This document shows, one piece after another, positions 44,146 to 64,000 of a stretch of DNA of 64,000 bases (its first letter is position 1; each line of letters opens with the position of its first letter). The position numbers and the translations under genes are program-made. The DNA lies in the NCBI GenBank assembly GCA_002719295.1, contig PBHC01000005.1, positions 1 through 64,000 on the forward strand. Reading direction: 5' to 3'. The notes beneath the pieces are model-generated. The model was given only the letters and a program-made list of their open reading frames with translations, searched no databases and was not told the DNA's origin. Origin of the DNA: Chloroflexota bacterium. Its GTDB lineage: Bacteria; Chloroflexota; Dehalococcoidia; Lucifugimonadales; Lucifugimonadaceae.

Positions 44146-44149
44146 TTTT

Positions 44150-45541: not shown

Positions 45542-45553
45542 AATTCTCCTCTA

Positions 45554-46939: not shown

Positions 46940-47666
46940 TGGTTTTAGCTTTCTCTCCAAAATTTTTATCTTTATATGGGTCTACAGTTGCCAAATATAC
47001 TACATTGGGATTTGTATTCAATTGAGGCATTAGAGAATATTTTCTGTCACTTTTTGCTAATATTGAAACTTCGCTTTCAGGATCATTTAGATCGCCAAAA
47101 GTTATCGCCCCTGTAGTACATGCTTCTTGACATGCTGTTTTTATTTCTCCATCTTGCAATTGATCTCCAGATTTCCTTGTACCTCTCTTAATCCTTTGCA
47201 TGCACATGCTACATTTTTCCATTATTCCTCTACTTCTAATAGTAACGTCTGGATTAAGATGGTTTCTAATTTCTTCTGGCCATGTAGGTTCCCAATAGTT
47301 GAACATTCTAACAATATATGGGCAACCATTTGCACAATATCTTGTTCCAACACATCTGTTATATACTTGGACATTTAATCCCTCATTATTATGATAGGTG
47401 GCATAAACGGGACAAACAGGTTCACATGGAGCATTTTCACAATGCTGACACATTATAGGAATAAATCTTGCTTTTACATTAGGGAATTCTCCTTCCCAGT
47501 ATCTTTCAATCCTGATCCAAGACATTACTCTTCCTCGTTCAAATTTATTTTGATCGTTTAGCGGAATATTATTTTCGACTTGACAAGCTGTAACGCATCC
47601 ACTGCAACCATTACATTTGTCGGTATCAATTACCATTCCCCAACTTCTATCTTTTTCAGCTACCAT
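46929..47666 (-). CDS. ACIII Fe-S subunit (ActB2/QrcC-like)
   Basis: CNGCSGCVTAC, CQHCENAPCEPVC, CVGTRYCANGC ([3Fe-4S]-type), RGIMEKCSMC...CQEAC. Confidence 0.9.
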   Translation of the reverse strand: MVAEKDRSWGMVIDTDKCNGCSGCVTACQVENNIPLNDQNKFERGRVMSWIRIERYWEGEFPNVKARFIPIMCQHCENAPCEPVCPVYATYHNNEGLNVQVYNRCVGTRYCANGCPYIVRMFNYWEPTWPEEIRNHLNPDVTIRSRGIMEKCSMCMQRIKRGTRKSGDQLQDGEIKTACQEACTTGAITFGDLNDPESEVSILAKSDRKYSLMPQLNTNPNVVYLATVDPYKDKNFGEKAKTNEH

Positions 47667-47684
47667 AATTATTCCTCTTTTGTT

Positions 47685-50051
47685 CTAATGAGAACTTTTT
47701 TCTTTATTTTCAGGCTTTTCTTCACCATGATCATCTCCATGTCCATCACCATGATCATCTCCATGTCCATGACTCTCTCTAAAATTTATAGATTCTTGAT
47801 ATTTATGATGATTCTCTTCCTCTGCTTCATGAGCTGTTTGCCCAGGTTTAACAACCAATACAGGAATCCCGGGTTCAACTGGGTATGCAGTTACATCACC
47901 TTCGAATTTAGGCATTGTTTTATTACCACCGGCTCTTTTTAATGACACTTTGGTTGATGCCCATGCAAAAGACCCAGATTTTTCATCTGTTAATCCAGAT
48001 AAAATCTTCAATACGTTTGATCCTCTATTCTCAGAATACCTTCCACCTTTTTCTGTCCCTTGTCCTGTAGGAACGCAAAGGGTTCCGGGTTGTACTGCAG
48101 GATGAGGATAGGCAAGGCATTTTATTTCTCCTGAATCAGATTTCAGATAAATAATATCACCTTCTTTAATTCCCATTTCTTCTGCCTGATGAGCATTTAT
48201 TTCTACCCATGTTTCCCATGCAGCAGTAGTTATACCGTCATAAGCTTCTTGAGCTAGAGGAACATTTGCATATTTCCCATCTCCCAAATTATTTGTGAAT
48301 GGAATCAAATGAAATTCTTCTCCATAATTTGTATCTGAGTTTGAAAACATATTTTTATTTTCAAATTCAAAAGCATTTTTTAATCTGATTTTTTTCTGAT
48401 CAGCTGTAATAGATTTATTCCAATATCCACCTCTTTGTTGAACACCGTTCATAAAAGAATTTTTATCATTTGCAATAATTGAACCAGAACTATTTGATTC
48501 TTTATATTCATTATCAAATATTTTCTTAACTAAAGACTTATTAGATCCACTTATTGATGGCTCTATATCAAGCAAAGTATCAACATAACTTATAGCTCCT
48601 GAAGCACCAGGCCCTTCTTTAACCACAACTGGTTGTTGTAGAGAAACAGTCATGTATCCAGGAAGAGGATTTGGAATTTCTGATCCCCATTCTTCAAAAA
48701 AAGTTGTATCTGGTACAACAATATCTGAAGCTTCTAATGTTTCATTCATCATGTTCCCAAAAGATATAACAGTTTCAACATTTTTCAGAGCCCCTAAAAC
48801 GTCTAGAGAATTTGGCATTGAGTAAGCCAAATCTACTCCTTTGATTATTACGGTATCAACGTATCCTGCTCTCCATTGAGCTAATTCTTCCTGCCACTGC
48901 TCGAGATTATTTGATTGATTGGAACCACCTATGTATTCTTTTTCAACTTCAGGGTTTATTATTATTCCGCCAGTTTTACCTACAGATCCAAGGAGGATAT
49001 TTAGAGAATATACTATATAAGTATTGAACTTTCCATTTGTGTATGCTGAAGTAGACCCACCTGCAAAAACTATACTATTTCCTTTAGAAATTTTGTGTGC
49101 AACTTCTATGATTTTTTCTTTAGAAACACCTGTTCTTTTTTCAACATCTTCTGGGTTGTATCCAAATTCGACTCTACCGTTAGGAAGTTTATTAAGAAAA
49201 TCATTGATTTGGTTGTCTGGAACAAGTTTTTCTTTGATTATTACATTTGCTATAGCTAGGGCTATATCTGCTTCTGTACCTGGATAAGGAGACATCCATA
49301 AGTCAGAATTTGCAGAAGTTAAAGAAAATCTAGGTTCTACGTGTCCAAAGAAGCCTCTATTACCTGAACGTAATTCACCGAAAGCAGTCCCAAATTGGGC
49401 AGGTGAAATCCAATTTTCTATCCAATCTGCACCAAAAGATAAAACGTTATCTGCATGAGCTATATCAAAATGCGGAATTTCATTCGTTTCAAATAGTTCA
49501 TATAATGCTTCGTGAAGGTTTGTTTGGTCTAAAGCTTCATAAGTTAGATATCTACCGCCTCTGCTTTCAGCAAATTTTTGAGAAATCCACCCTTCTGAAC
49601 TTCTAGAAGGGTTAGTAACTACTACAATCTTTTTTCCTTTAGCTGTTGCTTCTTTAATATATTTGTCCATTTCATCAACATTTGTATTTGCAAGGATCCC
49701 ATCTTTAGATCTTCTTAATTTTGGTTTATGCAATCTGTCAGGGTTGTAGTGAAGCTGAAGTGCAAAATCTAAGTTAGATCGTGCTCCTCCTCTGTTTACA
49801 GGATGGTCAGGGTTTCCTTTTAGTTTTTTTATTCTACCTTCAAGAATTCTAACTAAAACTCCATCTCCTGAAGCTCCTTCAGACCATGAAGTTGCATACC
49901 AAGAATCAATTCCTCTTACGAGATCTTCAGGCATATCGACAGGACTTTGAACAATTAGTTCCTTTTCAGGAATTGAACATGCAGCAAAAATTACAGCACC
50001 AGCTGCAGATTTTCCACTTAGTGATAAAAATTCTCTCCTGTTTATTTTCAT
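47685..50051 (-). CDS. ACIII molybdopterin-oxidoreductase-like subunit (ActB1/QrcB-like), Tat-exported, probably a lipoprotein
   Basis: NRREFL Tat motif then FAAC; KLKGNPDHPVN; molydopterin-binding-like C-terminal domain; no N-terminal Fe-S cysteines. Confidence 0.85.
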   Translation of the reverse strand: MKINRREFLSLSGKSAAGAVIFAACSIPEKELIVQSPVDMPEDLVRGIDSWYATSWSEGASGDGVLVRILEGRIKKLKGNPDHPVNRGGARSNLDFALQLHYNPDRLHKPKLRRSKDGILANTNVDEMDKYIKEATAKGKKIVVVTNPSRSSEGWISQKFAESRGGRYLTYEALDQTNLHEALYELFETNEIPHFDIAHADNVLSFGADWIENWISPAQFGTAFGELRSGNRGFFGHVEPRFSLTSANSDLWMSPYPGTEADIALAIANVIIKEKLVPDNQINDFLNKLPNGRVEFGYNPEDVEKRTGVSKEKIIEVAHKISKGNSIVFAGGSTSAYTNGKFNTYIVYSLNILLGSVGKTGGIIINPEVEKEYIGGSNQSNNLEQWQEELAQWRAGYVDTVIIKGVDLAYSMPNSLDVLGALKNVETVISFGNMMNETLEASDIVVPDTTFFEEWGSEIPNPLPGYMTVSLQQPVVVKEGPGASGAISYVDTLLDIEPSISGSNKSLVKKIFDNEYKESNSSGSIIANDKNSFMNGVQQRGGYWNKSITADQKKIRLKNAFEFENKNMFSNSDTNYGEEFHLIPFTNNLGDGKYANVPLAQEAYDGITTAAWETWVEINAHQAEEMGIKEGDIIYLKSDSGEIKCLAYPHPAVQPGTLCVPTGQGTEKGGRYSENRGSNVLKILSGLTDEKSGSFAWASTKVSLKRAGGNKTMPKFEGDVTAYPVEPGIPVLVVKPGQTAHEAEEENHHKYQESINFRESHGHGDDHGDGHGDDHGEEKPENKEKSSH
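47722..47769 (-). repeat. Two 24-bp tandem copies encoding a His/Gly/Asp-rich tail
   Basis: TCACCATGATCATCTCCATGTCCA x2 on the plus strand. Confidence 0.85.
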
Positions 50052-50081
50052 AATTTCCTCAAAATATTTCTCTTCTTAGTA

Positions 50082-50816
50082 CTAATGATGGCAAGCTGCA
50101 CAATCAGTAGGTCCTCCATTTTTTCTATGGCAATTAACACATTGCCCCATCTTTAAAGGTTCTACCTGGTAGACCTTTTCCATGCTAGCCACATCACCAT
50201 GACAAGTTGAACATACCTGAGATGCAGGCACACTCTCTTTTCCTTCTAAATCTAGACGTTCTGGGACATTCCCAATTGCGGAAGGATGGTTAGTTAAATA
50301 ATTAATGTGTGCTGAGTGTACAAATCTTACATGATCAGGAAGCCTATGAACCCTTCGCCAGTTAATAGGGGATGCCATTTCTGAATCAACAACAACTTGT
50401 TTATCTTCAGCATTTTCAAAAATACCTGAAGCTTCTCTTAGTTTTTTTAAATCTTCACTTTCGTAACTTCCAACTGCTCTATGACAACTTGCACATAATT
50501 CCACTGCAGGGACATGAGCTGAAGATGCTTTAGCAACTGTTCTATGGCAAAAAGTACAATCCATGCCTAATCCACCTTCAGATACTGGAGCTGCATGTTT
50601 TGTATGAGGAAAATTAATAGGCTGATCAAATGTTTGTTCAAATCCAAGAACAGGTAGTGGCTGTCCTAGCCATGCGTTGAAAAGTCCTGCTAACAAAATT
50701 GAAAATATTGCAAGTGTGGTTAGCCCACCTAATCCTACTAAAGGAATAAGAACTTTTACCCATAGTGGAGTGGTTCTGTCTAATTCTTTTATTCTATTTA
50801 TAATTTTTTTTATAAT
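50082..50816 (-). CDS. actA: ACIII pentaheme cytochrome c ActA; 5' end extended to a probable non-canonical start
   Basis: Five CxxCH (CTFCH, CASCH, CSTCH, CVNCH, CAACH), QPINFPH..H, W.RVHRLPDHVRF.H..H; frame stays open upstream of TTG 50696 through a TM helix. Confidence 0.85.
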   Translation of the reverse strand: MIKKIINRIKELDRTTPLWVKVLIPLVGLGGLTTLAIFSILLAGLFNAWLGQPLPVLGFEQTFDQPINFPHTKHAAPVSEGGLGMDCTFCHRTVAKASSAHVPAVELCASCHRAVGSYESEDLKKLREASGIFENAEDKQVVVDSEMASPINWRRVHRLPDHVRFVHSAHINYLTNHPSAIGNVPERLDLEGKESVPASQVCSTCHGDVASMEKVYQVEPLKMGQCVNCHRKNGGPTDCAACHH

Positions 50817-51284: not shown

Positions 51285-52280
51285 TTGATTAATAAAGACA
51301 AATTGATATGGATTTATGAGACTATGTGTAGGATAAGACTTTTTGAAGAATCTATGCTTGAACAAACTTATAAAGGCAATTCTATGGGAGTCACTCATCC
51401 TTCAGATGGACAGGAAGCTGTTCCCACTGGAATATGTGCTCATTTAACAGAAAAAGACTGGATAGGGTCTACTCATAGAGGACATGGGCATTGCATTGCA
51501 AAAGGACTTGAAACAGATAAAATGATGGCAGAAATCATGGGGAAATATACGGGAAACTGCAAAGGCAAAGGCGGATCTATGCATATAGCTGATTTTTCTA
51601 AAGGAATGCTTGGAGCAAATGCTATAGTAGGAGCTTCTATTCCTTTAGCAGTCGGAGCTGCATTAACTGCTAAATATCAAGGAAAAGAAAAAGATTCTAT
51701 AGGTGTTGCATTTTTCGGTGACGGAGCCTCCTCTCAAGGAGTCTTGCATGAATCTATGAATTTAGCTTCTATTTGGAAATTACCTGTTATTTTTGCTTGC
51801 GAAAATAACCAATATGCAGAAGCTACACCTTCTTGGTATGCAGTTTCAGTTGAAGACATAGCTGATAGAGCAGCATCATATAACATTCCAGGTGTAATTG
51901 TTGATGGAATGGATGTTTTTCAAGTATATGAAGCAGCTGAAGAAGCCGTGTCTAGAGCTAGAAAAGGTTTAGGACCTACTCTTTTAGAGTTGAAAACATA
52001 TAGATACCATGGCCATTTTCATGCCGATCAGCCTGAAAAATATAGAACAGAAGCTGAAGAAAAAGTTTGGAAAAATAAAGATTGTATTAAAAGCTTTGAA
52101 AAAAAAGTCCTTGATCAAAAATTAATGACTAAAACAGAATTGAATACATTGAAAAAAAATATAGAAAAAGAAATAGAAAATGCAGTTGAGTTTGGACTTT
52201 CAAGTCCACTCCCACCCACTGAGACATTATACGAAGATGTATACGTAAATTATTCAAATGACTTAAAAGGATTAAGATAA
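51285..52280 (+). CDS. TPP-dependent dehydrogenase E1 alpha (AcoA/PdhA-like)
   Basis: STHRGHGH, GKGGSMH, FFGDGA...ENNQYA, TYRYHGH. Confidence 0.92.
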   Translation: MINKDKLIWIYETMCRIRLFEESMLEQTYKGNSMGVTHPSDGQEAVPTGICAHLTEKDWIGSTHRGHGHCIAKGLETDKMMAEIMGKYTGNCKGKGGSMHIADFSKGMLGANAIVGASIPLAVGAALTAKYQGKEKDSIGVAFFGDGASSQGVLHESMNLASIWKLPVIFACENNQYAEATPSWYAVSVEDIADRAASYNIPGVIVDGMDVFQVYEAAEEAVSRARKGLGPTLLELKTYRYHGHFHADQPEKYRTEAEEKVWKNKDCIKSFEKKVLDQKLMTKTELNTLKKNIEKEIENAVEFGLSSPLPPTETLYEDVYVNYSNDLKGLR

Positions 52281-52299
52281 TACTATTCAAGAGGAAATT

Positions 52300-53361
52300 A
52301 TGACTATAAATAACCTAAATGGATTAGGTCCTGGATTTGATGTAAAGGGATCTGAAATGAGATACAGAGATGCTTTTAATAACACGCTGAGATCAGAGCT
52401 TGAACATGATGAAAATGTGCTTATAATTGGAGAGGATATTTCAGGAGGATTTGATAAAAAAACTAAAGAGCCATTAGATGCTTGGGGCGGACCATTTGCT
52501 GCTACAAAAGGTCTTGTTCAAGATTTTGGTGTAGAAAGAATAATGGATGCTCCAATTTCTGAAGCTGGGTTTGTAGGGGCAGCTATAGGAGCTGCTTTGA
52601 CTGGTTTAAGACCAGTAGTAGATCTAATGTATTTTGATTTTACTACTGTAGCATTTGACCAATTGTTATCAAATGCTGCTAAGAGTAGATATATGTTTGG
52701 AGGGCAAACTAAAGTCCCTCTTACTCTTTTTGCAAGATCTGGGGGGGGTACTGGACATGCAGCTCAACACTCTAGCGCTTTTTATTCAATCTTAGCCCAT
52801 ATTCCTGGATTAAAAGTCGTTACTCCTTCAGACCCTTATTCAGTCAAAGGATTACTATCTGCAGCTATAAGGGATGATGATCCCGTATTTGTTGTAAATG
52901 ATAAAAAATTGATTAATATGACAGGATTTGTACCAGATGAAGATTATCAAATAGATCTAGGAAAAGGAAGGTACACTAAAGAAGGAAGCGATATAACTTT
53001 AGTTGGAATGAGCTATACTTCTATTGTTTGTAAAGAAGCTTCAGAAAAATTAGAAAAAATAGGTGTAAATGCAGAGGTTATAGATCTTTTATCTTTATCT
53101 CCATTAGATGAACAAATTGTTATTGATTCTGTAAAGAAAACCAATAGGATCGTAATAGTTGATGAAGATAATCCAAGGGCAAGTATTGCTAGTGAAATTG
53201 CTGCGGTTGTATCAGATAAGGCTTTTGATTATTTAGATGCTCCAGTCAAAAGAGTAACAGCTCCTCACACGCCAGTTCCATATAGTAAAGGCTTGGAAGA
53301 TGAATTCATGCCAGATAGTAATGATGTTTTTGAAACTGTCAAAAAATTATTAGATATTTGA
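52300..53361 (+). CDS. TPP-dependent dehydrogenase E1 beta (AcoB/PdhB-like)
   Basis: GEDI, DAPISEAG, AAQHS, LDAPVKRV. Confidence 0.92.
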   Translation: MTINNLNGLGPGFDVKGSEMRYRDAFNNTLRSELEHDENVLIIGEDISGGFDKKTKEPLDAWGGPFAATKGLVQDFGVERIMDAPISEAGFVGAAIGAALTGLRPVVDLMYFDFTTVAFDQLLSNAAKSRYMFGGQTKVPLTLFARSGGGTGHAAQHSSAFYSILAHIPGLKVVTPSDPYSVKGLLSAAIRDDDPVFVVNDKKLINMTGFVPDEDYQIDLGKGRYTKEGSDITLVGMSYTSIVCKEASEKLEKIGVNAEVIDLLSLSPLDEQIVIDSVKKTNRIVIVDEDNPRASIASEIAAVVSDKAFDYLDAPVKRVTAPHTPVPYSKGLEDEFMPDSNDVFETVKKLLDI

Positions 53362-53700
53362 TTTTTTTATTTCTTCAATTAGTTCTTTTTTGGAATCACA
53401 AATAACAGCTTTGTCATTAATCGCGTAAGATAACAAACTGTTGTAAGGAAAGATTCCACTTTCATGTCCATCTGACCATAATGGTTGCAATGCATATTTT
53501 CCTACTATAAGATAATCAACTACTATTATGTCGTCTGGGACTTCAGTTACTTTCAATAGCTTTTTACCAGTTAATTCTTCCACACAATTAGCGCAGGCAC
53601 ATTGAAGTCTAAGATACTTATACGGATATATGCAAGAAATATCCTTTTGCCAAATAATTTCTAAGCCATCACTTAATCTATTTACAGCTTTTGGTTCCAT
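53350..53700 (-). CDS. DUF971 / GBBH N-terminal-like protein
   Basis: LRLQCACANC, VGKYAL..WSDGHESGIF. Confidence 0.85.
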   Translation of the reverse strand: MEPKAVNRLSDGLEIIWQKDISCIYPYKYLRLQCACANCVEELTGKKLLKVTEVPDDIIVVDYLIVGKYALQPLWSDGHESGIFPYNSLLSYAINDKAVICDSKKELIEEIKKSNI

Positions 53701-53800: not shown

Positions 53801-54862
53801 ATGAGCGATACTATAAAAGTTGGAATTGTTGGGGCTGGTGGAAATACTGTTTTGAAACATATCCCTCTTCTTCAAAAAATAGATGGAGTTGAAATTGTTT
53901 CTGTGGCTAATAGATCAATTAAGTCATCTAGTGCAGTAGCTTCACAATTTGAGATTAAGAATTATTATGATAATTGGCATGAAGTGGTATATGATAATGG
54001 GCTTGATGCAGTTGTAATTGGTACTTGGCCATATATGCACAAAAAACTTACTATTGAAGCTTTGCAATCTGGAAAACATGTATTATGCGAAGCTAGAATG
54101 TGTATGAACGCAGAAGAAGCTATGGAAATGTATGATTGCGCTCAAACATATTCTAATTTAGTTGCACAAATTGTTCCAGCGCCACACACCTTACCGATAG
54201 ATAAGACAATTATTAGGCTTATTTCATCAGGATATATAGGCGATTTAGTAAATCTTCGTGGAATGGTTACTGCAGGAAATGACTTTCCTAAAGAGAATCA
54301 AGAATTTCATTGGAGAAATAATAGAGACTTATCAGGAAACAATATAATGCAAATGGGTATTTGGTATGAAGCCATTATGAGATGGCTAGGTCCTGCAAAA
54401 TCTATCACAGCAAATGCTCAAACAATTATGAATCCTAGAGTAGATTATGATGGAAACTATGCTTACACTGATGTCCCTGATCATCTTGACGTACTTTGTG
54501 AAATGGTTAGTGGAGGAACAGCTAATTTACAATTTACTATGGTTTCAGGAATGGCTCCTGAGTCTGAAATGTGGATACATGGTACTAGAGGAACATTAGT
54601 AGTAAAAACTGAGACAACTGATGATCCTGGAGCTCCTGCATTAAAACTCTATGGTGCAGAACAAGGGCAAAAAAGATTAGAAGAAATAGAAGTTCCTAAT
54701 GAAGAGAAAGGTGCTTGGAGAGTAGAAGAAGAGTTTATAAATGCAATCAGAGGTGAAGAAATCATTACCCATACTAACTTTACAGATGGCGTAAAGTATA
54801 TGAAATTTACAGATGCTATTTTTGACTCGTATTCTACTGGACAAAAAATCTACTTAACCTAA
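53801..54862 (+). CDS. Gfo/Idh/MocA-family oxidoreductase
   Basis: VGIVGAG, DAVVIGTWPYMH, GKHVLCEARM. Confidence 0.9.
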   Translation: MSDTIKVGIVGAGGNTVLKHIPLLQKIDGVEIVSVANRSIKSSSAVASQFEIKNYYDNWHEVVYDNGLDAVVIGTWPYMHKKLTIEALQSGKHVLCEARMCMNAEEAMEMYDCAQTYSNLVAQIVPAPHTLPIDKTIIRLISSGYIGDLVNLRGMVTAGNDFPKENQEFHWRNNRDLSGNNIMQMGIWYEAIMRWLGPAKSITANAQTIMNPRVDYDGNYAYTDVPDHLDVLCEMVSGGTANLQFTMVSGMAPESEMWIHGTRGTLVVKTETTDDPGAPALKLYGAEQGQKRLEEIEVPNEEKGAWRVEEEFINAIRGEEIITHTNFTDGVKYMKFTDAIFDSYSTGQKIYLT

Positions 54863-54863
54863 T

Positions 54864-55628
54864 ATGAACAAAATTGACTTAAATGCTGATATCGGAGAAT
54901 CTTTTGGTTCATACAAGCTTGGCTATGATGAAGAGATAGTAAAATATATTTCATCTGCAAACATAGCTACTGGATTTCATGCAGGAGATCATAATTGGAT
55001 AAAAAAGACTGTTGATTTATCAAAAAAATACAATGTAGCTATAGGTGCTCATCCATCTTATCCTGATTTAGCAGGTTTTGGAAGAAGAGAAATGTCTATG
55101 TCTTCTGATGAAATAGAAAACTTAATTAAATATCAGGTTGGTGCTCTTATTGGATTTGTTGGCATAGAAAATATTGAACACGTAAAACCTCATGGGGCTT
55201 TGTATAATAAGGCAGTAAATGATTCAGTTACTGCAAAAGCTATAATCAATGCAATTAAATCTATTAGCGATAAACTTATACATGTTGTTTTGGCAGGATC
55301 GTTATGGGAAAAAATAGCATTAGATTCAGGAGTTAAGGTTTCTAGAGAGACTTTTGCTGATAGAGAATTTATGTCAGATGGAACTCTATGTCCTAGATCA
55401 ATTGATGGATCTGTAATAGAAGACTCAGAAAAAATAGTAAATAGAACGCTTAAGATGATTAAAGATAAAGAAGTTGATACTTTTGAAGGGGATAAGATTA
55501 AGATTGATTTCGATTCAATTTGTTTACATGGTGACACTGAAGGGGCAGTAGAAATTGCTAGAAGTATAAATAATTCATTTCAAAAAAACAATATAATCAT
55601 TACTTCTATGTCGAATGTTATTTTATGA
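54864..55628 (+). CDS. pxpA: 5-oxoprolinase subunit A (LamB/YcsF)
   Basis: DLNADIGES, SANIA.GFHAGD, GAHPSYPD..GFGRR, HVKPHGALYN, ICLHGD. Confidence 0.92.
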   Translation: MNKIDLNADIGESFGSYKLGYDEEIVKYISSANIATGFHAGDHNWIKKTVDLSKKYNVAIGAHPSYPDLAGFGRREMSMSSDEIENLIKYQVGALIGFVGIENIEHVKPHGALYNKAVNDSVTAKAIINAIKSISDKLIHVVLAGSLWEKIALDSGVKVSRETFADREFMSDGTLCPRSIDGSVIEDSEKIVNRTLKMIKDKEVDTFEGDKIKIDFDSICLHGDTEGAVEIARSINNSFQKNNIIITSMSNVIL

Positions 55629-56293
55629 AAAATTTTTTTGTTATAAATTTTCATGGTGACTCAACTTTAGTGATTAAACTTGGTGAAGAAATTGATATAA
55701 AAACTAATCAAATGCTTCATGAGATCGTTCATCTTCTAGAAATAGATTTAAAATTCAACGATTATATTGAAGATATTTACCCAACTTTTAATAGCATAAT
55801 TATTGATTATGATAATTTATTAATCGATTTTGAAAATTTAAAATCTCTGATTAATAAAAAGCTGTTATCTTTTATAAAAAAATATAAAACAGATTCTGAC
55901 GAGAAAAAAATTATAGAAGTTCCAGTAAAGTACGGAAGTGAAAATGGTCCTGACTTAAGTATGATGTCTGACAAACTTAAAATTTCTGAAGAAAAGATCA
56001 TAGAAATTCATACTTCTAGTTTATACAGAATATTTATGATAGGATTCATGCCAGGTTTTCCCTATTTAGGAGGACTAAGTAAAAAAATATCATTTCCAAG
56101 GCTTTCTACTCCTAGGATTTCTGTTCCAGCAGGCTCTGTTGGTATTGCAGGGATTCAAACAGGAATTTATCCTTTTGCATCACCAGGTGGTTGGAATATT
56201 ATTGGAAAAACTGAAAAAAAATTATTTGACATAAATTTAAATCCTCCAGCATTACTAGAGGCAGGAACAAATTTGAGATTTGTAAAAATATGA
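55625..56293 (+). CDS. pxpB: 5-oxoprolinase subunit B (KipI / CT_C_D domain)
   Basis: PVKYG...GPDL, IGFMPGFPYL, PR..PR..VPAGSVGIAG.QTGIYP..SPGGW.IIG. Confidence 0.9.
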   Translation: MKNFFVINFHGDSTLVIKLGEEIDIKTNQMLHEIVHLLEIDLKFNDYIEDIYPTFNSIIIDYDNLLIDFENLKSLINKKLLSFIKKYKTDSDEKKIIEVPVKYGSENGPDLSMMSDKLKISEEKIIEIHTSSLYRIFMIGFMPGFPYLGGLSKKISFPRLSTPRISVPAGSVGIAGIQTGIYPFASPGGWNIIGKTEKKLFDINLNPPALLEAGTNLRFVKI

Positions 56294-57330
56294 TAAAAGT
56301 TATAAATTCTGGAATACTTTCTAGCTTTCAAGATAAAGGTAGATATGGACAAAAAAAATTTGGGGTGTCTAAATCAGGATCTCTAGATTCTTTTTCTTTC
56401 GAGTTAGCTAATAGATTGACAGGGAATGACATTGACGAACCATGCATTGAAACTTTAGGAGGTTTTTCATGTGTTTTTTATATAGAATCTATAGTTTCAA
56501 TTACAGGGCCAATTGAGTTTTTTTCTGTAAATAATAGCTTCATTTATAAAACCAATTCTTCTATAAAGTTAAAATCTGGTGATAAATTAGATATTCCAAT
56601 TCCTCAAAAAGGGAATATTTTTTATTTATCAGTATCAGGGGGATTCAAAATTGATAAAATTTTAGATTCTTACTCATATCATCAACCTTCAAATATAACT
56701 AATAATTTTAAGATTTCCTCAGGTGATGAAATAGAATTAAATCCAACAAAACAACAAAATTTATTCGTTTCAGAAACCTCTTTTTTCGAAAAAAGAATAT
56801 TTAATAATGAAAAAATTAAGATTATTTATAATGAAGAATCTAGGTCTGACAAAATTAAAAACTTATTCGAAAATAATGAATTTACAATTTCTGATCAATT
56901 TAGCCGACAAGGGATTAGATTAATTGGAAATCCAATAAGTATATTTAAGGATCAAAATGAGATTTCTTCAGAAGTTTCTCCTGGTACAGTTCAACTTCCT
57001 CCAGATGGTCAACCGATTATATTATTAAATGATTCTCAAACTACTGGAGGGTATAAAAAAATAGGAGTTATCCCTAGGTTTGAATTGTCAAAATTATCTC
57101 AAAAACCGATTTCCTCTAGAATAAAATTTTCAGAGATTTCATTAAGTGATTCTATAAATGAATTTCGTGAAATGAGAACGGAATTTGATAATATCAATAT
57201 TTATAATTACATAAACAGAGTACTTGAAATAAATGGTAGATTGATTTCCGTTCAAATTTTAGAAAATAATAGTATAATGTCGATATCTGATAATGAGCAA
57301 TTTGACATAATCGAGGAAAATTTTGAATAA
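56290..57330 (+). CDS. pxpC: 5-oxoprolinase subunit C (KipA / CT_A_B domain) with C-terminal extension
   Basis: QDKGRYG...GV..SG.LD, ANRLTGN, SRQGIRL, GTVQLPPDGQPIILL.D.QTTGGY. Confidence 0.88.
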   Translation: MIKVINSGILSSFQDKGRYGQKKFGVSKSGSLDSFSFELANRLTGNDIDEPCIETLGGFSCVFYIESIVSITGPIEFFSVNNSFIYKTNSSIKLKSGDKLDIPIPQKGNIFYLSVSGGFKIDKILDSYSYHQPSNITNNFKISSGDEIELNPTKQQNLFVSETSFFEKRIFNNEKIKIIYNEESRSDKIKNLFENNEFTISDQFSRQGIRLIGNPISIFKDQNEISSEVSPGTVQLPPDGQPIILLNDSQTTGGYKKIGVIPRFELSKLSQKPISSRIKFSEISLSDSINEFREMRTEFDNINIYNYINRVLEINGRLISVQILENNSIMSISDNEQFDIIEENFE

Positions 57331-57700
57331 TTCTATATTAGATGGATTTAATTTATTTTGGATAGGTACAAGCGTAGTATTTTTAGTTTTAATAGTACTT
57401 TTGATATCAATAAAAATTCTAACTTTTTTTGAAAAAGAGTTTTTTCAAAAAGAATTAAAGAAAAGAAAGATTATTAATCATGAAAATGAAGATAATTTAA
57501 TAGATGTAGCTGCTGCCATTGCAGTTTCATTATTTAAAAAGAGTAAAATCCGAACTAATGAAATTGCTGCTGCTGTTGCTGTTTCAATGTATGAAAATAG
57601 CAAAAGTAAAACTATTATGAGTAATATAAATTCGTTCCAATCATCATGGATTACTATTAATAGATCAAGAATGATGAATAGAAAATCTAGAAGGATATAA
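57323..57700 (+). CDS. OadG/MmdD-like gamma/delta subunit of a Na+-translocating decarboxylase
   Basis: N-terminal TM G.SVVFLVLIVL, IAAAIA motifs, C-terminal S.W...R. Confidence 0.75.
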   Translation: MNNSILDGFNLFWIGTSVVFLVLIVLLISIKILTFFEKEFFQKELKKRKIINHENEDNLIDVAAAIAVSLFKKSKIRTNEIAAAVAVSMYENSKSKTIMSNINSFQSSWITINRSRMMNRKSRRI

Positions 57701-57701
57701 A

Positions 57702-58163
57702 TTGAGTAAATATAAATTAAATATTAATGGCCAACATTTCGATGTAGAAATCTTATCTGAAAATAATAGTTCTTATGAGGTGATGGTCAATGGTGAGATT
57801 CTGATGGTAAACAAAGATGTTGATTCACAAATTCCTATTTCAAAACCTACTATACCTCAACTTCCCAAAACAAAACCTTTGCAAACTTCTACTCCAAATT
57901 CTGAAAAAAAACAAGAATCTAAGATTGAATCCTTAGACTCTAAGGTAGAGGGGAATTCAATTAAGGCACTAATGCCAGGTAAAGTTTTAAAAGTTTTAGT
58001 TTCAGAAGGAGAAAGCGTTGAATCTGGGACTCCATTATTAGTTATTGAATCAATGAAAATGGAAAATATCATCTCTTCCACTAAATCCGGAAAGGTAAGT
58101 GCCGTTCATGTAAAAATTGATGATAATGTTCAGTATGATCAACCTTTAGTTGAAATAAATTAA
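57702..58163 (+). CDS. Biotin carboxyl carrier protein (MmdC/GcdC-like)
   Basis: N-terminal KLNING..FDVEI, Pro-rich linker, ALMPGKV, ESMKMEN biotin-lysine motif. Confidence 0.92.
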   Translation: MSKYKLNINGQHFDVEILSENNSSYEVMVNGEILMVNKDVDSQIPISKPTIPQLPKTKPLQTSTPNSEKKQESKIESLDSKVEGNSIKALMPGKVLKVLVSEGESVESGTPLLVIESMKMENIISSTKSGKVSAVHVKIDDNVQYDQPLVEIN

Positions 58164-58180
58164 ATCTTGAGAAAATATTT

Positions 58181-59380
58181 ATGATTGATTACATAGAACC
58201 ATTAATTGAAGGAATCAATGATTTAATTTCTAACCCCAAAATGATAATAATGTGGATTATTTCAGCTTTTCTTTATTATGTAGGTATTTATAAAAAGAAA
58301 GAACCTTTATTGTTGGTACCTATATCAACCGGAATTTTACTAGCAAATCTTCCTATGGGAGAATTGATTAGAATTGGAGGGAATGGAGAACCAGATGGGT
58401 TTCTAAGGATTTTTCAAAATATTGGTATGACAAATGATCTTCTTCCGTTATTAATATTTTTAGGGATGGGAGCTTTGACTGATTTTGAACCAGTTCTATC
58501 TAACCCTAAAACTTTACTTTTGGGTGCAGCTGCTCAAGTTGGAGTATTTGCAGCTTTGTTAGGAGCTTTATTTATAAGCCTAACTCCATTTTTTGATTTT
58601 GGTCTTCTAGAGGCGGCTTCTATAGGTATTATAGGGGGAGCTGATGGTCCTACTACAATATTCATTTCAACAAGAATGAGAGAATTGGGCAATTCTTTAC
58701 CTTTATATAATATGAGTGATATTGTGGGTGCAACTGCAGTTGCGGCATATTCTTATATGGCTTTAGTTCCTATAATTCAGCCTCCATTAATTAGACTTTT
58801 TACAACAAAAAATGAACGTAGAATTAGAATGGATTATTCAGAAAAGAAGATTTCTAAGAGAACTAAAATAATTTTTCCAATACTGACTATTTTAATAGTT
58901 AGTATTTTGGTTCCAGATGCATCTCCTCTTATTTCAATTATGATGTTTGGTAATATTTTGAGAGAATCAGGAGTTGTTGATAGATTGGCAAAAACTGCTC
59001 AAAATGAGTTAATGAATGTAGTTATAATTTTACTAGGATTATCAGTTGGTGCAACAATGCCTGCAAGTGTATTTTTGAAAGTAGAAACAATATCCATTTT
59101 TATTCTTGGATTAATCTCTTTTGTATTTGCTACTATTTCTGGGATTTTACTTGCAAAAGTGATGAACTTGTTCTTAAGTAAACCTATAAATCCAATGATT
59201 GGAGCTGCAGGAGTTTCCGCAGTACCTATGGCAGCAAGAGTAGTTCAAAATGAAGCATTTAAAGAAGATCCAAATAACTATATTCTGATGCATGCAATGG
59301 GTCCTAATATAGCAGGTGTTATTGGAACAGCTACAGTGGCTGGTGTTCTTTTAGCAGTTGTTCCACAATTGGTGGCATAA
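58181..59380 (+). CDS. Na+-translocating decarboxylase beta subunit (OadB/MmdB/GcdB family)
   Basis: EPLLLVPI, GALTDF, GAAAQ.G, IGIIGGADGPT, AAYSYMALVPIIQPP, GVSAVPMAARV, HAMGPN.AGVIG. Confidence 0.95.
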   Translation: MIDYIEPLIEGINDLISNPKMIIMWIISAFLYYVGIYKKKEPLLLVPISTGILLANLPMGELIRIGGNGEPDGFLRIFQNIGMTNDLLPLLIFLGMGALTDFEPVLSNPKTLLLGAAAQVGVFAALLGALFISLTPFFDFGLLEAASIGIIGGADGPTTIFISTRMRELGNSLPLYNMSDIVGATAVAAYSYMALVPIIQPPLIRLFTTKNERRIRMDYSEKKISKRTKIIFPILTILIVSILVPDASPLISIMMFGNILRESGVVDRLAKTAQNELMNVVIILLGLSVGATMPASVFLKVETISIFILGLISFVFATISGILLAKVMNLFLSKPINPMIGAAGVSAVPMAARVVQNEAFKEDPNNYILMHAMGPNIAGVIGTATVAGVLLAVVPQLVA

Positions 59381-59383
59381 ATA

Positions 59384-60139
59384 ATGGAGTACTCTTTATA
59401 TATTTATTTGATCTTATCTATTATTTGTTTATTAATTGGCTTCTTAGGAGGGTTTTTAGGAATAGCGTTAGGAGCAGTAAGATTGCCTATAATAATTATT
59501 TTAGGGATTGAACCTATTATTGCAGCATCTACAAATTTGCTTGCTGTTATCTTTGGTTCATTTGCCGGTTTAATACCCGCTATAAAACAAAACAGAGTTC
59601 CTATAAAAGCATCTATTAGAATTGCTATACCATCAATGATTGCCGCATTCTTAGGTGGGTATTTTGCATTTCAAATCCCTGAATTATATCTATTAATAAT
59701 TATGATTTTTTGTCTTGTTGTATCAGGCTTAGTCATGACTTTTTACAAAATAAGTGAGTTTGAAGATAAGCCTTCAAACAAAAATTCTTTATATGAAGTT
59801 ACTGTGGGTATTCTTATATCTTATTTCGGAGGTACTGTAGGCTTGGCTTTAGGAGTTCTAAGAGTTCCTGCTTTTGTATATTTCTTAAGGATGAATATTA
59901 AGAAAGCTGGTGGTATAAACCTATTTTTGTCTATTTTAGTAGGTATTTCAGCTTATGCAGGACATTCGTTTTCAGGAGGATTTGATTATTTTCTAGTATT
60001 AACTATTGTTTTTCCTACAATAATTGGGATGTATTGTGGATCAAGATTTGTAAAAATTGCTAATGATAATCAGTTACGTAAAATTTTAGGAATTACTTTG
60101 TTGGTACTATCCCTAGTTTTATTAATTAGAGAGCTTTAG
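59384..60139 (+). CDS. TSUP (TauE/SafE) family membrane protein
   Basis: Two repeats GFLGGFLGIALG..R.P and GGTVGLALG..R.P; about 8 TM helices. Confidence 0.8.
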   Translation: MEYSLYIYLILSIICLLIGFLGGFLGIALGAVRLPIIIILGIEPIIAASTNLLAVIFGSFAGLIPAIKQNRVPIKASIRIAIPSMIAAFLGGYFAFQIPELYLLIIMIFCLVVSGLVMTFYKISEFEDKPSNKNSLYEVTVGILISYFGGTVGLALGVLRVPAFVYFLRMNIKKAGGINLFLSILVGISAYAGHSFSGGFDYFLVLTIVFPTIIGMYCGSRFVKIANDNQLRKILGITLLVLSLVLLIREL

Positions 60140-60172: not shown

Positions 60173-60598
60173 TTATTTTTTAGTTTCCCAAAAAATATCC
60201 CCTATTTCTTCTAATGCTGCTTTAAACTCTTTAGCTTTTCCAAGGTCTACATTAACTTTTACAAAAGATCCTAGCTTACATGCATTCCAAACTTTTTCAT
60301 GTAAATCAGGGTATTTTTCTAAATGTTCTGGTTTGAAATAATCAGTCCATATAACCAAAATGTCATCTTTTGCTTTTTTTGCGTGCTCTTCTTTTGCAGC
60401 AACATATCTAGCCATTGAATTACCTAGACTTGCAGATGGTCCTTTTGAATAATCTAGTTCTTCAAGCAATTCCGTCATTCTGATCACTGTTTGAGCCGCC
60501 TGTAGTGCATCATGTGGATCATAAATTCCACACGGGATATCACAGTGACTAGTTGCTTCATGTACATTGAATACTTTTTCAAAAATATTATTTAACAT
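60173..60598 (-). CDS. sodN: Nickel superoxide dismutase precursor
   Basis: Ni-hook HCDIPCGIYDP after a short leader; KEEHA, WTDYFK, IFWETK. Confidence 0.96.
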   Translation of the reverse strand: MLNNIFEKVFNVHEATSHCDIPCGIYDPHDALQAAQTVIRMTELLEELDYSKGPSASLGNSMARYVAAKEEHAKKAKDDILVIWTDYFKPEHLEKYPDLHEKVWNACKLGSFVKVNVDLGKAKEFKAALEEIGDIFWETKK

Positions 60599-60645
60599 TT
60601 TTTCTCCTTGTTTAATTTTTTTCTTGTGGTTGTAGAATATATATT

Positions 60646-61110
60646 ATGATAAATTTACGAAGTTTGATAATACCTTTTGTTAAAAATTTATTGAATATAC
60701 TATTTTTTCCAAAAAACTACATGATTTTCAAAATAACTGAAATGAATAGTAATAGTATGGAACCAAATTTTCATGAAGGTTCCTATTATTTGGTAAAAAA
60801 AATATCTGATTTTTCCTCAATAAAAAGATTCGATGTAATTATTTATTTTTGCAAAATCCACTCATTAAATCATATAAAAAGAGTAGTTGGGCTACCCAAT
60901 GAAACATTAAATGTGTATGACAATTCAATTTTTGTTAATACCAAAAAAATCGATAATATTTCTATTCCTGATTCAATAAACATTGAATGTAAAATTAGAT
61001 CAATTGAATATTTTTTATTGTCAGATAATATATTTTTATTAGGAAAATCTTGCGATTCAATAAAGAATGGCCCAATAAAAAAAGAAAATATTATAGGTTC
61101 AATTATTTAA
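60646..61110 (+). CDS. sodX: S26 peptidase, probable Ni-SOD maturation protease (start may be ATG 60721)
   Basis: SMEP (Ser), IKRV (Lys), DN...CDS...GP; divergent from sodN. Confidence 0.65.
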   Translation: MINLRSLIIPFVKNLLNILFFPKNYMIFKITEMNSNSMEPNFHEGSYYLVKKISDFSSIKRFDVIIYFCKIHSLNHIKRVVGLPNETLNVYDNSIFVNTKKIDNISIPDSINIECKIRSIEYFLLSDNIFLLGKSCDSIKNGPIKKENIIGSII

Positions 61111-62389
61111 AATAATTGTTAATTAGTTTTTTCGAAGACAATGCTGCTGTTTCCATAGTGTTTGGTAAACTATTTATAGTCCAATCTCCTACATAATATA
61201 GATTTCTACTTTTATGATTCAGATTGATTTTTTTTGTAGATATTTGTGTTGCCTTTGGAGATCTTATTACAAGAGACCTTATGTTTTTTATGTTTTCAGA
61301 AATATTCAATTCTTTTCTTAATATTTTTTCATATTCTTGAATTAATTTTTGATTAGTAACCTTTAATAGATTCCCAACTGCACTTAGAGAAATTACGATT
61401 CTATATTCTTTATTTGATTTTCTAAATTTATTATCAGAAAATACCCATTCTAATTTTGAATTAGTAAAACTAATAAAATCTTCGTTGGTTACCTTTTTAT
61501 CAAACCAAAAATAGATATTGATTATTCCATCAGTTCTTAAATTATTATTTTGGGTCTTATTATTTGTGGGTGAATCGAAACTTTTTATCCCCCCAATAGT
61601 AGTCGCTATTATGACTTTGTCATACACATAATTTTTATTTTTGCTCATTAATGAATATTTTTTTTGAGAATATTTTATATTTTCTATTTTTTCTCCTAGA
61701 TATAAGTTTGATTCATTTTTCTTTATGTAATTTTCAAAATTTTTATTTAGAATTTTGCTAAAAGGTTTTTTGAAATAACAAATTCCTATATTTTTTTTAT
61801 AATTGAAAATCATAATCTGAAATAAATTTATCGCATGATTCATTGTTATTTCGTTAAGTTTAGAATTAAAAGCCGGAACACAAATTATTTCCCAAAACTT
61901 TTTTATCATGTCATTATTTTGACCATTTTTTTCTAACCATGATTTGAAGGAAGTTTTAGAATTATAATCTTTTGATTTTGATAATTTATATAAACCTAAA
62001 ATTATCTTTAATCTTTCATTGAATTTTAAGTTTTTGTAGTTTAAAACAGAAAAAATTAAATTTAGTGGATATAAAGGAATGCTTGATTTAATATAGTGAG
62101 TTTTTGAGTTATCTTGAACTGGAATATTAATTTTCTTTTTTATAGATAAATATTGCTTAACATTTAGTTTTTCTAGGACTTCTAGAAAATTTTTATATGA
62201 AGGTAAAAATATGTGCTGTCCTATGTCTACAGTAATATTTTTGTTTTTTATAGATCCAGCTCTCCCCCCTAAAGTTTTTTTTGTTTCAAAAATATCTACT
62301 TTATAACCTTTTTCAATAAGAAATACTGATGCAGCTATTCCTGAAATTCCTCCCCCAATTATTGCTATTTTTTGATTTTTGTTTTTCAA
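61103..62389 (-). CDS. hpnE: Hydroxysqualene dehydroxylase-like FAD oxidoreductase
   Basis: IIGGGISG, LGGRAGS, DIGQHI, GDWT...P.TMETA; adjacent to hpnC. Confidence 0.75.
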   Translation of the reverse strand: MKNKNQKIAIIGGGISGIAASVFLIEKGYKVDIFETKKTLGGRAGSIKNKNITVDIGQHIFLPSYKNFLEVLEKLNVKQYLSIKKKINIPVQDNSKTHYIKSSIPLYPLNLIFSVLNYKNLKFNERLKIILGLYKLSKSKDYNSKTSFKSWLEKNGQNNDMIKKFWEIICVPAFNSKLNEITMNHAINLFQIMIFNYKKNIGICYFKKPFSKILNKNFENYIKKNESNLYLGEKIENIKYSQKKYSLMSKNKNYVYDKVIIATTIGGIKSFDSPTNNKTQNNNLRTDGIINIYFWFDKKVTNEDFISFTNSKLEWVFSDNKFRKSNKEYRIVISLSAVGNLLKVTNQKLIQEYEKILRKELNISENIKNIRSLVIRSPKATQISTKKINLNHKSRNLYYVGDWTINSLPNTMETAALSSKKLINNYFK

Positions 62390-63294
62390 TTTTTGTGTAA
62401 ATAAGATTTTAAAATAGATTTGATTATTATAATGATTTTTTCCAATGAATTAGTTTTAGGTTTTTTTAAAAGTATATTTGATTTATTTTTACTAATTTTT
62501 TTTAATATACTTTCACCAGAACTTATAAAAATTTGTATTATAGTCGCATCTTTCTTTTTAAGGTAGGATGTAAGATTTTTCCCATCCTGATATAACGTTT
62601 TATTTATATTAACTAGTTCAGTAATTAGATTTTCAAATTGTTCCTTGTACGTATCATTATCTAAAATCTTTTTGTTATTCAGTTTTGATAGATCAACTTT
62701 GTGTTTTTTTAAAAATTCACCTGGGATATAAGTCCTCCCTTTACTTAAATCTATTTGTATATCTTGAATGAAATTAGTAATTTGAAGTGCTGTGCAAATA
62801 TTATTAGAAAGATTTACTAGGTTTTTATCTCTATATCCCATAATATTTAATACAATCTCTCCAACAGGATTGGCAGAATGTTCACAATAATAATAAAGTT
62901 CCTCTAATGAATTATAATTATGTTTTGTTTGATCTATAGAATTTGCTTTTATTAATTTTTCAAATGGTAGTTTAGGTAAATTGTATTTTTTTATTGTTTT
63001 TTGTAGAGCTATAAAAACTGGATTTGTAGCACTGTTTTTATAAGCAAGGTCTAATTCTTTTTGCCAAATTTCTAATCCATCAAAAATGCTTTCTTTAGAA
63101 AGTTCATCTCCTATAAAATCAATTCCTCTAGAAAAAGCATATATACTTGCAAAGTCATCCATAAGATTTTTTTTAATAAAAAACATATAAATAGGAAAAT
63201 TTTCATAATTCCTATTTATGATTTCATAGCATGTCTTTATAGATTCTTTGTAATTTAATTTTTTACCAGATTGAAGGAAAATTAAATTTTTCAT
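62386..63294 (-). CDS. hpnC: Squalene/phytoene synthase family, HpnC-like
   Basis: YENFP, IYAFSR..D..GDE, YC..SANPVG, ICTALQ.TNF.QD; ATG 63294 follows the upstream stop. Confidence 0.8.
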   Translation of the reverse strand: MKNLIFLQSGKKLNYKESIKTCYEIINRNYENFPIYMFFIKKNLMDDFASIYAFSRGIDFIGDELSKESIFDGLEIWQKELDLAYKNSATNPVFIALQKTIKKYNLPKLPFEKLIKANSIDQTKHNYNSLEELYYYCEHSANPVGEIVLNIMGYRDKNLVNLSNNICTALQITNFIQDIQIDLSKGRTYIPGEFLKKHKVDLSKLNNKKILDNDTYKEQFENLITELVNINKTLYQDGKNLTSYLKKKDATIIQIFISSGESILKKISKNKSNILLKKPKTNSLEKIIIIIKSILKSYLHKN

Positions 63295-63295
63295 A

Positions 63296-64000
63296 TTATC
63301 TGATTTTTGAAAACTCATAGAATAATTTTTTTTCAAATATTTCATTTTTGATTTTTTTTGTTTTTATTTTATGAAAATATAATTCTCTTAAGAATTCATT
63401 AAACTTATTCCAAATTGTAGGATTTAAGTTGTTTGTGATTGGAAAGCTTGAATTAATTATTCTGATTATTGATATGTTAAGTGAGTTTTTTATCATAAAT
63501 TCATTTAATCTTGAAGAATAGCTATCTATGAAAATTCCATTTAGATTATCATTTATCCATTTTTTAGCATTTGATCTATGATGTATATTATGAGCATTTT
63601 CTAATTCAATGCCTGAGCCTACATAATGTTCAAATGTTAATTTTTCTAGAATATCGCAAATTGATTTATTTAATTCTTCAGAAGTATCGAACCATCTGTC
63701 TTCTCTGGGCACAGACCAATTGATTGGTTTAGAATTCATGCTTATAGTTTCTTTTGCTACAATAATACTTCCATTTTCTATATGCTTTATAGTTTGGAGG
63801 GCGAAATCTAAAGAAATAATATTTTTTGGCTTTAAATCATCTATTGTTTTTTTTAAATCAATAAAATCATCATTTTTTTCTATGGAGTAAAAATAAAAAT
63901 TATTGTTTATGGCTTTCTTTTTGAAGTATTTATTACTAATTATTAAGTTCATTATTTTGTACGATGCATTAAGAAAAAGTTTGTATCTAAAAGCATACTT
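63296..64000 (-). CDS. Divergent nucleoside-phosphorylase-fold protein (HpnG-like); 5' end uncertain
   Basis: PKNIISLDFA...GSIIVA, FIDSYS and IIRIINS weakly resemble PNP_UDP_1 motifs; frame is open to the window edge (first ATG 63952). Confidence 0.4.
   Translation of the reverse strand, partial: KYAFRYKLFLNASYKIMNLIISNKYFKKKAINNNFYFYSIEKNDDFIDLKKTIDDLKPKNIISLDFALQTIKHIENGSIIVAKETISMNSKPINWSVPREDRWFDTSEELNKSICDILEKLTFEHYVGSGIELENAHNIHHRSNAKKWINDNLNGIFIDSYSSRLNEFMIKNSLNISIIRIINSSFPITNNLNPTIWNKFNEFLRELYFHKIKTKKIKNEIFEKKLFYEFSKIR

Follow-up and report, generated by a model that had tools for sequence, protein, structure and literature searches.

A candidate Na+-driven biotin carboxylase hub with PxpABC as its putative docked partner in marine Chloroflexota

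The Na+-translocating biotin decarboxylases (Oad, Mmd, Gcd and Mad) combine an OadB-type beta subunit that carries Na+-site residues with a membrane-anchored gamma/delta subunit, and PxpABC, described from Bacillus subtilis, Escherichia coli (YbgJKL) and Corynebacterium glutamicum, is known as a stand-alone, ATP-dependent 5-oxoprolinase. Here we analysed a 64,000-nt stretch of DNA (the window: positions 1–64,000 of contig PBHC01000005.1, assembly GCA_002719295.1) from a Chloroflexota bacterium (Dehalococcoidia; Lucifugimonadales; Lucifugimonadaceae), in which one operon joins the beta and gamma/delta components of the former to all three subunits of the latter, in the same order. All parts belong to known families; their combination is not described in the literature that we searched, which held no paper on pxp–oadB linkage or on OadB replacing a biotin carboxylase (subscription journals lay mostly outside the search), in agreement with a preliminary description of the locus that knew of no characterised system of this composition. 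That description had proposed a new decarboxylating pump. Our analysis shifts the interpretation to a Na+-driven biotin carboxylase hub with docked PxpABC: OadB and gamma would run in reverse, feeding fatty-acid synthesis and the docked PxpBC, a reading to which we assign, from the sequences, a probability of about 0.5.

The operon consists of eight plus-strand open reading frames (ORFs; 53801–60139) with intergenic spacings of +1, −4, −4, −8, +1, +17 and +3 bp. The ORFs, Pfam and NCBIfam bear out the eight tightly spaced, same-strand genes and the families first named for them, gamma lying just below threshold, and NCBIfam agrees with Pfam on the gene names of the operon proteins. Its features are as follows.

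53801..54862, + strand: Gfo/Idh/MocA oxidoreductase, accessory (PF01408)
54864..55628, + strand: pxpA (LamB/YcsF family), putative ring-opening hydrolase, core (PF03746, E 2.7e-91; NF003814 over cut-off; PDB homologues 1V6T and 1XW8)
55625..56293, + strand: pxpB, carboxyltransferase subdomains C and D, core (PF02682, E 7e-63; TIGR00370 over cut-off)
56290..57330, + strand: pxpC, carboxyltransferase subdomains A and B plus a C-terminal extension, core (PF02626, E 1.5e-52)
57199..57330, + strand: PxpC docking module (~residues 304–346), four predicted strands, homologous to the carrier N-terminus
57323..57700, + strand: gamma/delta anchor (OadG/MmdD type), core (PF04277, 26 bits, below the cut-off of 27; 6IVA_B, E 0.006)
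57702..58163, + strand: biotin carboxyl carrier with MKM motif and four-stranded N-terminal anchor, core (PF00364, E 7.5e-18)
58181..59380, + strand: OadB-type Na+-translocating carboxybiotin (de)carboxylase beta subunit, core (PF03977, E 1e-140; TIGR01109 over cut-off)
59384..60139, + strand: TSUP/TauE transporter, accessory (PF01925)

The pxpA, pxpB and pxpC genes are present, clustered and in order, with intact frames. PxpA and PxpB score over their NCBIfam cut-offs, and PxpC under both of its own (205.9 against 230.2 and 167.7 against 500). Homologues of PxpB are KipI, YbgJ and MSMEG_0436; those of PxpC are YbgK, MSMEG_0435 and urea carboxylase, and public records assign its close homologues to Dehalococcoidia or Chloroflexi. 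In OadB, the motifs around D203, Y229, S382/R389 and N412 are kept in an alignment to the Salmonella protein (6IVA), the roles of these Na+-site residues being taken from a passage of PMC7274780. Strict Na+-site motifs occur in 41–43 of 45 OadB sequences, and all of them are present in this one. The MKM carrier of the operon is the only one that a motif scan of all ORFs found in the genome, which also encodes a biotin ligase.

To place the operon in its lineage, we surveyed 151 genomes, namely the present one, 90 relatives within the family and single representatives of 60 other families in the order. OadB was detected in 119 of these and PxpB in 127, and pxpB lay <5 kb from oadB in 104 of the 115 genomes with both; the linkage is thus not confined to this genome. 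It takes two forms. Within the host family, the genes are linked within 5 kb on the same strand in 78 of 83 genomes with both (four of the remaining five have them on different contigs, at least one of these pairs being separated by a contig end). In the other families, linkage within 5 kb is on opposite strands (26/32 genomes), and all 23 loci inspected are divergent, with pxpABC pointing one way and oadG–oadB(–carrier) the other. The OadB proteins of the two layouts do not form one clade (approximately unbiased test, p 0.007; 29 rows, quick tree), a grouping that was tested after a first tree had been seen. The two OadB lineages are separate, and therefore the pairing either originated twice or persisted while OadB was replaced. 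The pxp–oadB linkage is far beyond chance and is selected. Outside the order, pxp genes were near none of 20 other Chloroflexota oadB loci and none of 80 further oadB loci listed, a capped and gut-dominated sample; among 80 metagenome pxpC loci, four had oadB nearby, all with the layout of the host family. Several Dehalococcoidia loci (L169, L170, L231–L240) hold oadB with no carboxyltransferase gene nearby and may represent further stand-alone biotin-loading pumps.

The second line of evidence is the C-terminal extension of PxpC. The protein is ~45 residues longer than E. coli YbgK, which ends at 310 amino acids (aa), and the docking extension measures 45–65 residues. An AlphaFold model places four strands in this tail, which matched the N-terminal anchor of the carrier (hhalign, 95%, E 2.9e-8, 42 columns); 20 control windows in the PxpC core reached at most 1.4%. 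Of 50 loci of the order that were informative, 48 have the tail. One of the two tail-less proteins comes from a genome without OadB and the other from a second, carboxylase-containing pxp cluster. In other orders, PxpC was tailed in all five sequences inspected from one family, in which 11/11 genomes have OadB, and tail-less in 3/3 from another, in which 0/3 do. The tail therefore tracks OadB even where the genes lie apart, in two families of other orders. A search of a protein atlas with the tail gave scores of at most 0.77, an uninformative level. Natural fusions of PxpC to a carrier were present in 11 of the 23 long representatives scanned, among 150 listed, and pxpB–pxpC–carrier–carboxylase clusters in 2/80 metagenome loci. 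Last, excerpts of a cryo-EM study (PMC13012033) describe carrier-bound biotin, held by a mycobacterial PxpC homologue, as "positioned to participate in a carboxylation reaction". Together, the linkage in two layouts, the docking module, the fusions and this structure indicate that PxpBC very probably works with, and is physically coupled to, the carrier/pump module, as the preliminary description had supposed.

Several observations on PxpC stand beside these. The fusions to a biotin carrier are of several kinds (P0010, P0014, P0020, P0024, P0036, P0038, P0051, P0063, P0069, P0075 and P0100); some have an AccB-type carrier, and they are relevant to how PxpABC works in general. In a PxpC group that includes Fusobacterium records (P0168–P0286), 117/119 proteins have a single docking hairpin. 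A Fusobacterium vincentii record (L386; 2.1 Mb, filed as a plasmid but looking like a chromosome) has OadB, a tail-less PxpC and no biotin carboxylase, and its pxp and oadB genes are 190 kb apart.

We then compared the distribution of OadB with that of biotin carboxylase, scored by PF02785 matches. Among the 151 genomes, 97 have OadB only, 26 carboxylase only, 22 both and 6 neither, five of the last six being 61–84% complete. The 60 one-per-family genomes divide into 27, 21, 9 and 3, respectively (Fisher p 3e-6, with kin still not fully independent in 60 genomes of 60 families). In the host family, 70 of 83 OadB-bearing genomes have no PF02785 match; nine of the other 13 have large multi-domain carboxylases (two checked). 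The profile search found no PF02785 match in this genome, and a second carboxylase family, PF00289, was matched in 0/5 genomes.

The gamma subunit suggests how one supplier could take the place of the other. It has a membrane helix, an Ala-rich docking helix and a conserved Trp motif, a pattern kept in 14 full-length rows of the alignment, and the tail of gamma in Oad binds the alpha subunit, according to a passage of PMC7274780. In a profile comparison, this tail matched the tails of the relatives' ATP-dependent biotin carboxylases (hhalign, 97%, E 1e-11), and the same helix plus Trp motif forms the C-terminus of 11 of the 22 biotin carboxylases that were viewed. One genome (G021) has a biotin carboxylase directly 5′ of carrier and TSUP genes, 5 kb from pxpC; four others (G013, G019, G036 and G042) lack OadB and retain, between pxpC and the carrier, a gamma peptide without its membrane part. 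The best PDB match of the carrier profile is the beta subunit of a two-subunit pyruvate carboxylase (residues 469–615), an enzyme whose Ala-rich helix is, as part of PMC5059739 describes, enclosed by two four-stranded sheets that separate chains contribute. This reads as OadB and biotin carboxylase being interchangeable carboxybiotin suppliers that would plug into one socket. The Ala-rich helix is doubled in gamma of this genome and of a relative (G007), which could allow two partners. Elsewhere in Chloroflexi, a gamma protein (L031:6813-7367) combines the helix and the Trp motif with a four-stranded docking module in a single chain.

No alpha subunit and no biotin carboxylase had been seen beside the pump; both absences stand within the window, and the first does not hold for the genome. 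An OadA/PycB-type carboxyltransferase that lacks a biotin domain (507 aa) is encoded at C1:20539-22062 (L112:9540-11063, − strand) and a PccB/MmdA-type one at C8:45081-46637, both scoring under the oadA and mmdA cut-offs; PF01039 and PF02436 each have a single match in the genome, neither inside the window. Thus, a canonical alpha subunit elsewhere as the true partner, which would speak against the original proposal, has in part been found, with both types on other contigs. Across the survey, the OadA type occurs in 12/12 genomes of the genus, 21/90 of the family and 57/151 overall, and a PF01039 carboxyltransferase in 151/151, so that PxpBC as the one missing alpha subunit is not supported. 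Carboxyltransferases are encoded elsewhere in the genomes, and the carrier is therefore better read as a shared hub. The OadA/PycB-type protein ends in one docking-type hairpin (E 8e-6 against one hairpin of the docking profile in a two-sequence search, not significant genome-wide) and differs in type from the OadA–carrier fusions of other families. In those families (L224:4051-7719 in G111; L173–L184), pccB and an OadA–carrier fusion stand in a row as a transcarboxylase-like cluster, with a gamma-tail-like peptide between them seen in G111. In the host genome, pccB is followed by a 455-aa ORF without Pfam or NCBIfam match and then malate dehydrogenase (C8:45081-48983; L111:10082-13984), the slot after pccB being taken in relatives by an isocitrate-dehydrogenase-like gene. 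Malonate decarboxylase was tried as a partner and rejected: its alpha subunit exceeded the cut-off in 0/151 genomes, with a control that gave no clear positive.

In most of the family, the demand for carboxybiotin is visible without a conventional source. There are 48 family genomes with OadB but neither carboxylase nor OadA, 47 of them with a strong AccA match, and 46 that have OadB and a strong AccA match with no biotin carboxylase, OadA or methylmalonyl-CoA mutase; ten of 12 single-contig family genomes are among the 48 and show no carboxylase or OadA. Mutase matches were found in 2/90 family genomes as opposed to 45/60 genomes of other families. In five genomes, the pxp-linked carrier was the only short biotin/lipoyl match, and of 23 matches in total ten were read, eight of them being lipoyl domains. 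A fused accDA lies 5–7 kb from fabD in 4/5 genomes, and the stretches fetched around accDA hold no accB or accC. Both accDA and fabD are missing from this genome, which we read as an assembly gap (the assembly is 1.27 Mb and 81% complete) because four genes that flank them in G007, including ftsK, are missing as well. The gene content shows cells that would need malonyl-CoA and have no other visible way to load biotin.

On this basis, we propose that the oadG–carrier–oadB module is a biotin-loading station that stands in for ATP-dependent AccC. By homology, the carrier N-terminus and the PxpC tail would each supply a four-stranded sheet, and the two would wrap the Ala-rich helix of gamma. Na+ inflow through OadB would drive CO2 onto the carrier biotin, the reverse of the textbook pump, and carboxybiotin would be passed to several carboxyltransferases: AccDA, PccB, the docked PxpBC and, in genomes that have it, OadA/PycB. 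Fused AccDA would make malonyl-CoA for fatty acids. Like urea carboxylase acting on urea, PxpBC would carboxylate its substrate, here 5-oxoproline or a similar lactam, at the ring nitrogen; PxpA would open the activated ring, the carbamate would lose CO2, and the uphill hydrolysis would proceed without ATP. A Na+-type pyrophosphatase would maintain the Na+ gradient, with antiporters contributing in some genomes. For the parts taken separately, reverse running as the main role is somewhat favoured over the alternative, and N-carboxylation by PxpBC, by analogy, is probable. We would put at a little under even odds the wider claim that CO2 reaches biotin in these ocean bacteria solely by way of sodium-motive force and not of ATP, with OadB interchangeable with AccC through the docking tail and PxpABC biotin-dependent in general; if the last part holds, the reported need for ATP would come from the biotin carboxylase of the host.

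Energetically, the opening of 5-oxoproline is uphill by 8.3 kJ/mol as computed, and part of PMC13274462 gives a Keq of 0.035. This disposes of the suggestion that breakdown of this lactam drives Na+ export, which would need a high-potential donor. The other suggestion of the preliminary description, that the Na+ gradient replaces ATP in biotin carboxylation, is adopted as the best reading, with a direction that we infer. Na+-pumping decarboxylases reportedly run in reverse in vitro, a reversibility that a passage of PMC7274780 cites (Dimroth and Hilpert, 1984). In 5/5 genomes, a pyrophosphatase has the residues that mark the Na+ type (A12.46, G12.49 and E6.53, from the table excerpted from PMC10897367), and the ATP synthase c subunit is without the Na+-binding residues of the usual motif.

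A number of points weigh against reverse running and against PxpBC as a user of carboxybiotin. For the reverse reaction, the product/substrate ratio at equilibrium ranges from 2e-5 to ~3 over the potentials and CO2 levels assumed, with mid values at 20–200 uM CO2 of ~1e-3 to 4e-2; this margin is thin, and a downstream pull would therefore be needed. A CPA-type antiporter was found neither in this genome nor in G007. The absences rest on assembled metagenomes, the related genomes are not independent, and 22/151 genomes hold both OadB and a carboxylase match. OadB without biotin carboxylase is also seen in anaerobes (Thermotoga among the controls and a Fusobacterium record), which have forward donors, and the pattern by itself is therefore no proof of reversal. 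The likeness of gamma and carboxylase tails was seen with profiles only, for eleven carboxylases picked by eye, and one pairwise BLASTP comparison gave no match. AccDA has drifted from the canonical motifs, in its AccA half and most in G007 and the host genus (L220:4861-6519 and other accDA loci). The OadA type in the host genus, and pccB beside an OadA–carrier fusion in other families, mean that oxaloacetate transcarboxylation could supply carboxybiotin there, and reductive carboxylation of enoyl-CoA could be a donor route to PccB. Finally, the authors of PMC13012033 interpret the binding of biotin as regulatory and saw no activity of urea carboxylase, and the reviews PMC8453981 and PMC13274462 present PxpABC as an ATP-dependent enzyme whose PxpBC part hydrolyses ATP.

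These points feed four other explanations. The same carrier hub might be loaded from the opposite side, an OadA- or PccB/MmdA-type enzyme taking the carboxyl group from oxaloacetate or a carboxy-acyl-CoA, AccDA and PxpBC drawing on it, and OadB discharging the surplus with Na+ export. Both donor-type enzymes are encoded in this genome, the OadA tail resembles a docking hairpin with the reservations given above, other families have the pccB–peptide–oadA cluster and commonly the mutase, transcarboxylation from oxaloacetate to acetyl-CoA is known (as part of PMC8085960 reports), and no energy problem arises. We nevertheless consider it rather unlikely: OadA, mutase and, by a weakly controlled search, malonate decarboxylase are mostly missing, so that a donor route is not visible in most of the family, including the 48 genomes that have OadB and lack both OadA and carboxylase, and the mutual replacement of carboxylase and OadB would go unexplained. 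A forward pump fed by PxpABC is improbable. Here, a cyclic amide would be turned by PxpA into an N-carboxy compound, PxpBC would move the carboxyl group of this compound to biotin and OadB would export Na+, with the same carboxybiotin possibly also feeding AccDA; the operon layout, docking module and intact OadB fit, and the 46 donor-less genomes would gain a carboxyl source. Carboxyl transfer of the urea carboxylase type is chemically reversible. Against this, 5-oxoproline cannot drive Na+ export, and we know of no high-potential donor. Relatives without OadB keep a tailed PxpC beside the carrier and an ATP-dependent carboxylase, which fits PxpBC as an acceptor, and the c subunit described above means that exported Na+ would not drive ATP synthesis directly.

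It is less probable still that PxpBC only regulates or parks the carrier, with PxpABC an ordinary ATP-dependent oxoprolinase and the pump serving other carboxyltransferases. Its support is the published ATP dependence together with the mycobacterial homologues, which, according to PMC13012033, sequester biotin and lower propionyl-CoA carboxylase activity; covalent PxpC–carrier fusions and pxpB–pxpC–carrier–carboxylase clusters are hard to read as mere regulation, and a Pfam search of PxpA, PxpB and PxpC found no ATP-binding family. That unrelated genes were simply inherited as a block is very improbable. Kin share synteny, 11/115 genomes with both genes have them unlinked, and the 100 oadB loci inspected outside the order had no pxp genes nearby, but chance leaves out the two layouts, the two OadB lineages and a docking module that follows OadB even across separated genes.

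If the Na+-driven hub is true, the Na+ gradient would pay for both fatty-acid building and lactam breakdown in many marine Chloroflexota, and the reversed pump may supply malonyl-CoA in this widespread group as an energy-saving trait of slow-growing cells. The literature that we searched holds no case of a reversed Na+-pumping decarboxylase replacing AccC in a living cell. The hub would also bear on how PxpABC, which has no recognisable ATP site, pays for opening 5-oxoproline, and would offer an ATP-free carboxylation module for engineering. If the forward pump is true instead, it would add a fifth substrate class to the pump family.

The surroundings of the core genes were also inspected. The Gfo/Idh/MocA and TSUP/TauE genes are each linked in 16/19 loci of the host family and 0/20 of other families; both were considered as core parts and rejected, their linkage being confined to the host family. 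In many family loci, a DHDPS-family gene lies between oadB and TSUP, with methylcitrate-cycle genes after it (L114:9286-10179 and L119:118-5581). A promoter scan gave no signal (38 sites against 36.8 expected). Contigs from four marine metatranscriptomes of a single study span parts of gfo, pxpA and oadB, and none covers pxpC; we left them out of the evidence because contigs cannot show co-transcription or level. Upstream in the window lie a cluster for alternative complex III, in which two NrfD-like genes occur and the molybdopterin-type subunit has a histidine-rich tail (43645–50696), and a dehydrogenase E1 alpha/beta pair without adjoining E2, together with a GBBH-like N-terminal protein (51285–53700), which is kept upstream of the operon in the family. 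Downstream (60173–63345) are nickel superoxide dismutase and its S26 peptidase, followed by genes for squalene/phytoene synthase and a flavin oxidoreductase. From alternative complex III and nickel superoxide dismutase, the host looks like an aerobic respirer.

Set against known systems, the locus therefore combines features that have been described apart. Na+-translocating biotin decarboxylases have been described from anaerobic growth, whereas the host here looks aerobic, and the operon has PxpABC in place of an OadA, MmdA, GcdA or Mad carboxyltransferase. The carrier resembles GcdC, which in the part of PMC7145394 consulted is a separate chain with an N-terminal anchor, a linker and an MKM domain. 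In contrast to the known 5-oxoprolinase, PxpC is extended and tied to a carrier and pump. PxpBC shares the carboxyltransferase fold of urea carboxylase/urea amidolyase (3VA7), and the proposed N-carboxylation followed by hydrolysis has the same logic, but there is no biotin carboxylase domain, the subunits are separate and a LamB-type protein replaces allophanate hydrolase; the urea carboxylase model TIGR02712 scores 84.7 bits against a cut-off of 1303.85, and the alignment to 3VA7/5I8I is gapped at the urea-site loop, the insertion around this loop being absent here. The proposed docking arrangement recalls the BT-like domain of two-subunit pyruvate carboxylase (5KS8), with its Ala-rich helix and two four-stranded sheets from separate chains, except that the helix would come from membrane gamma instead of biotin carboxylase and the sheets from different proteins. 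MSMEG_0435–0436 on mycobacterial acyl-CoA carboxylase (9YX5) are likewise PxpC and PxpB homologues that engage carrier-bound biotin; there, the carrier belongs to an ATP-dependent carboxylase, the PxpC homologue is tail-less (294 aa) and the authors propose regulation. The three gene kinds of transcarboxylase (12S, 5S and 1.3S) occur in this genome unlinked, the 5S type in 21/90 family genomes. Of heteromeric AccABCD, relatives retain AccDA and fabD, and AccC is without a match in 70/83 OadB-bearing family genomes. Biotin carboxylase is thus missing from most OadB carriers, and the physiological direction is therefore probably reversed relative to the classical pumps.

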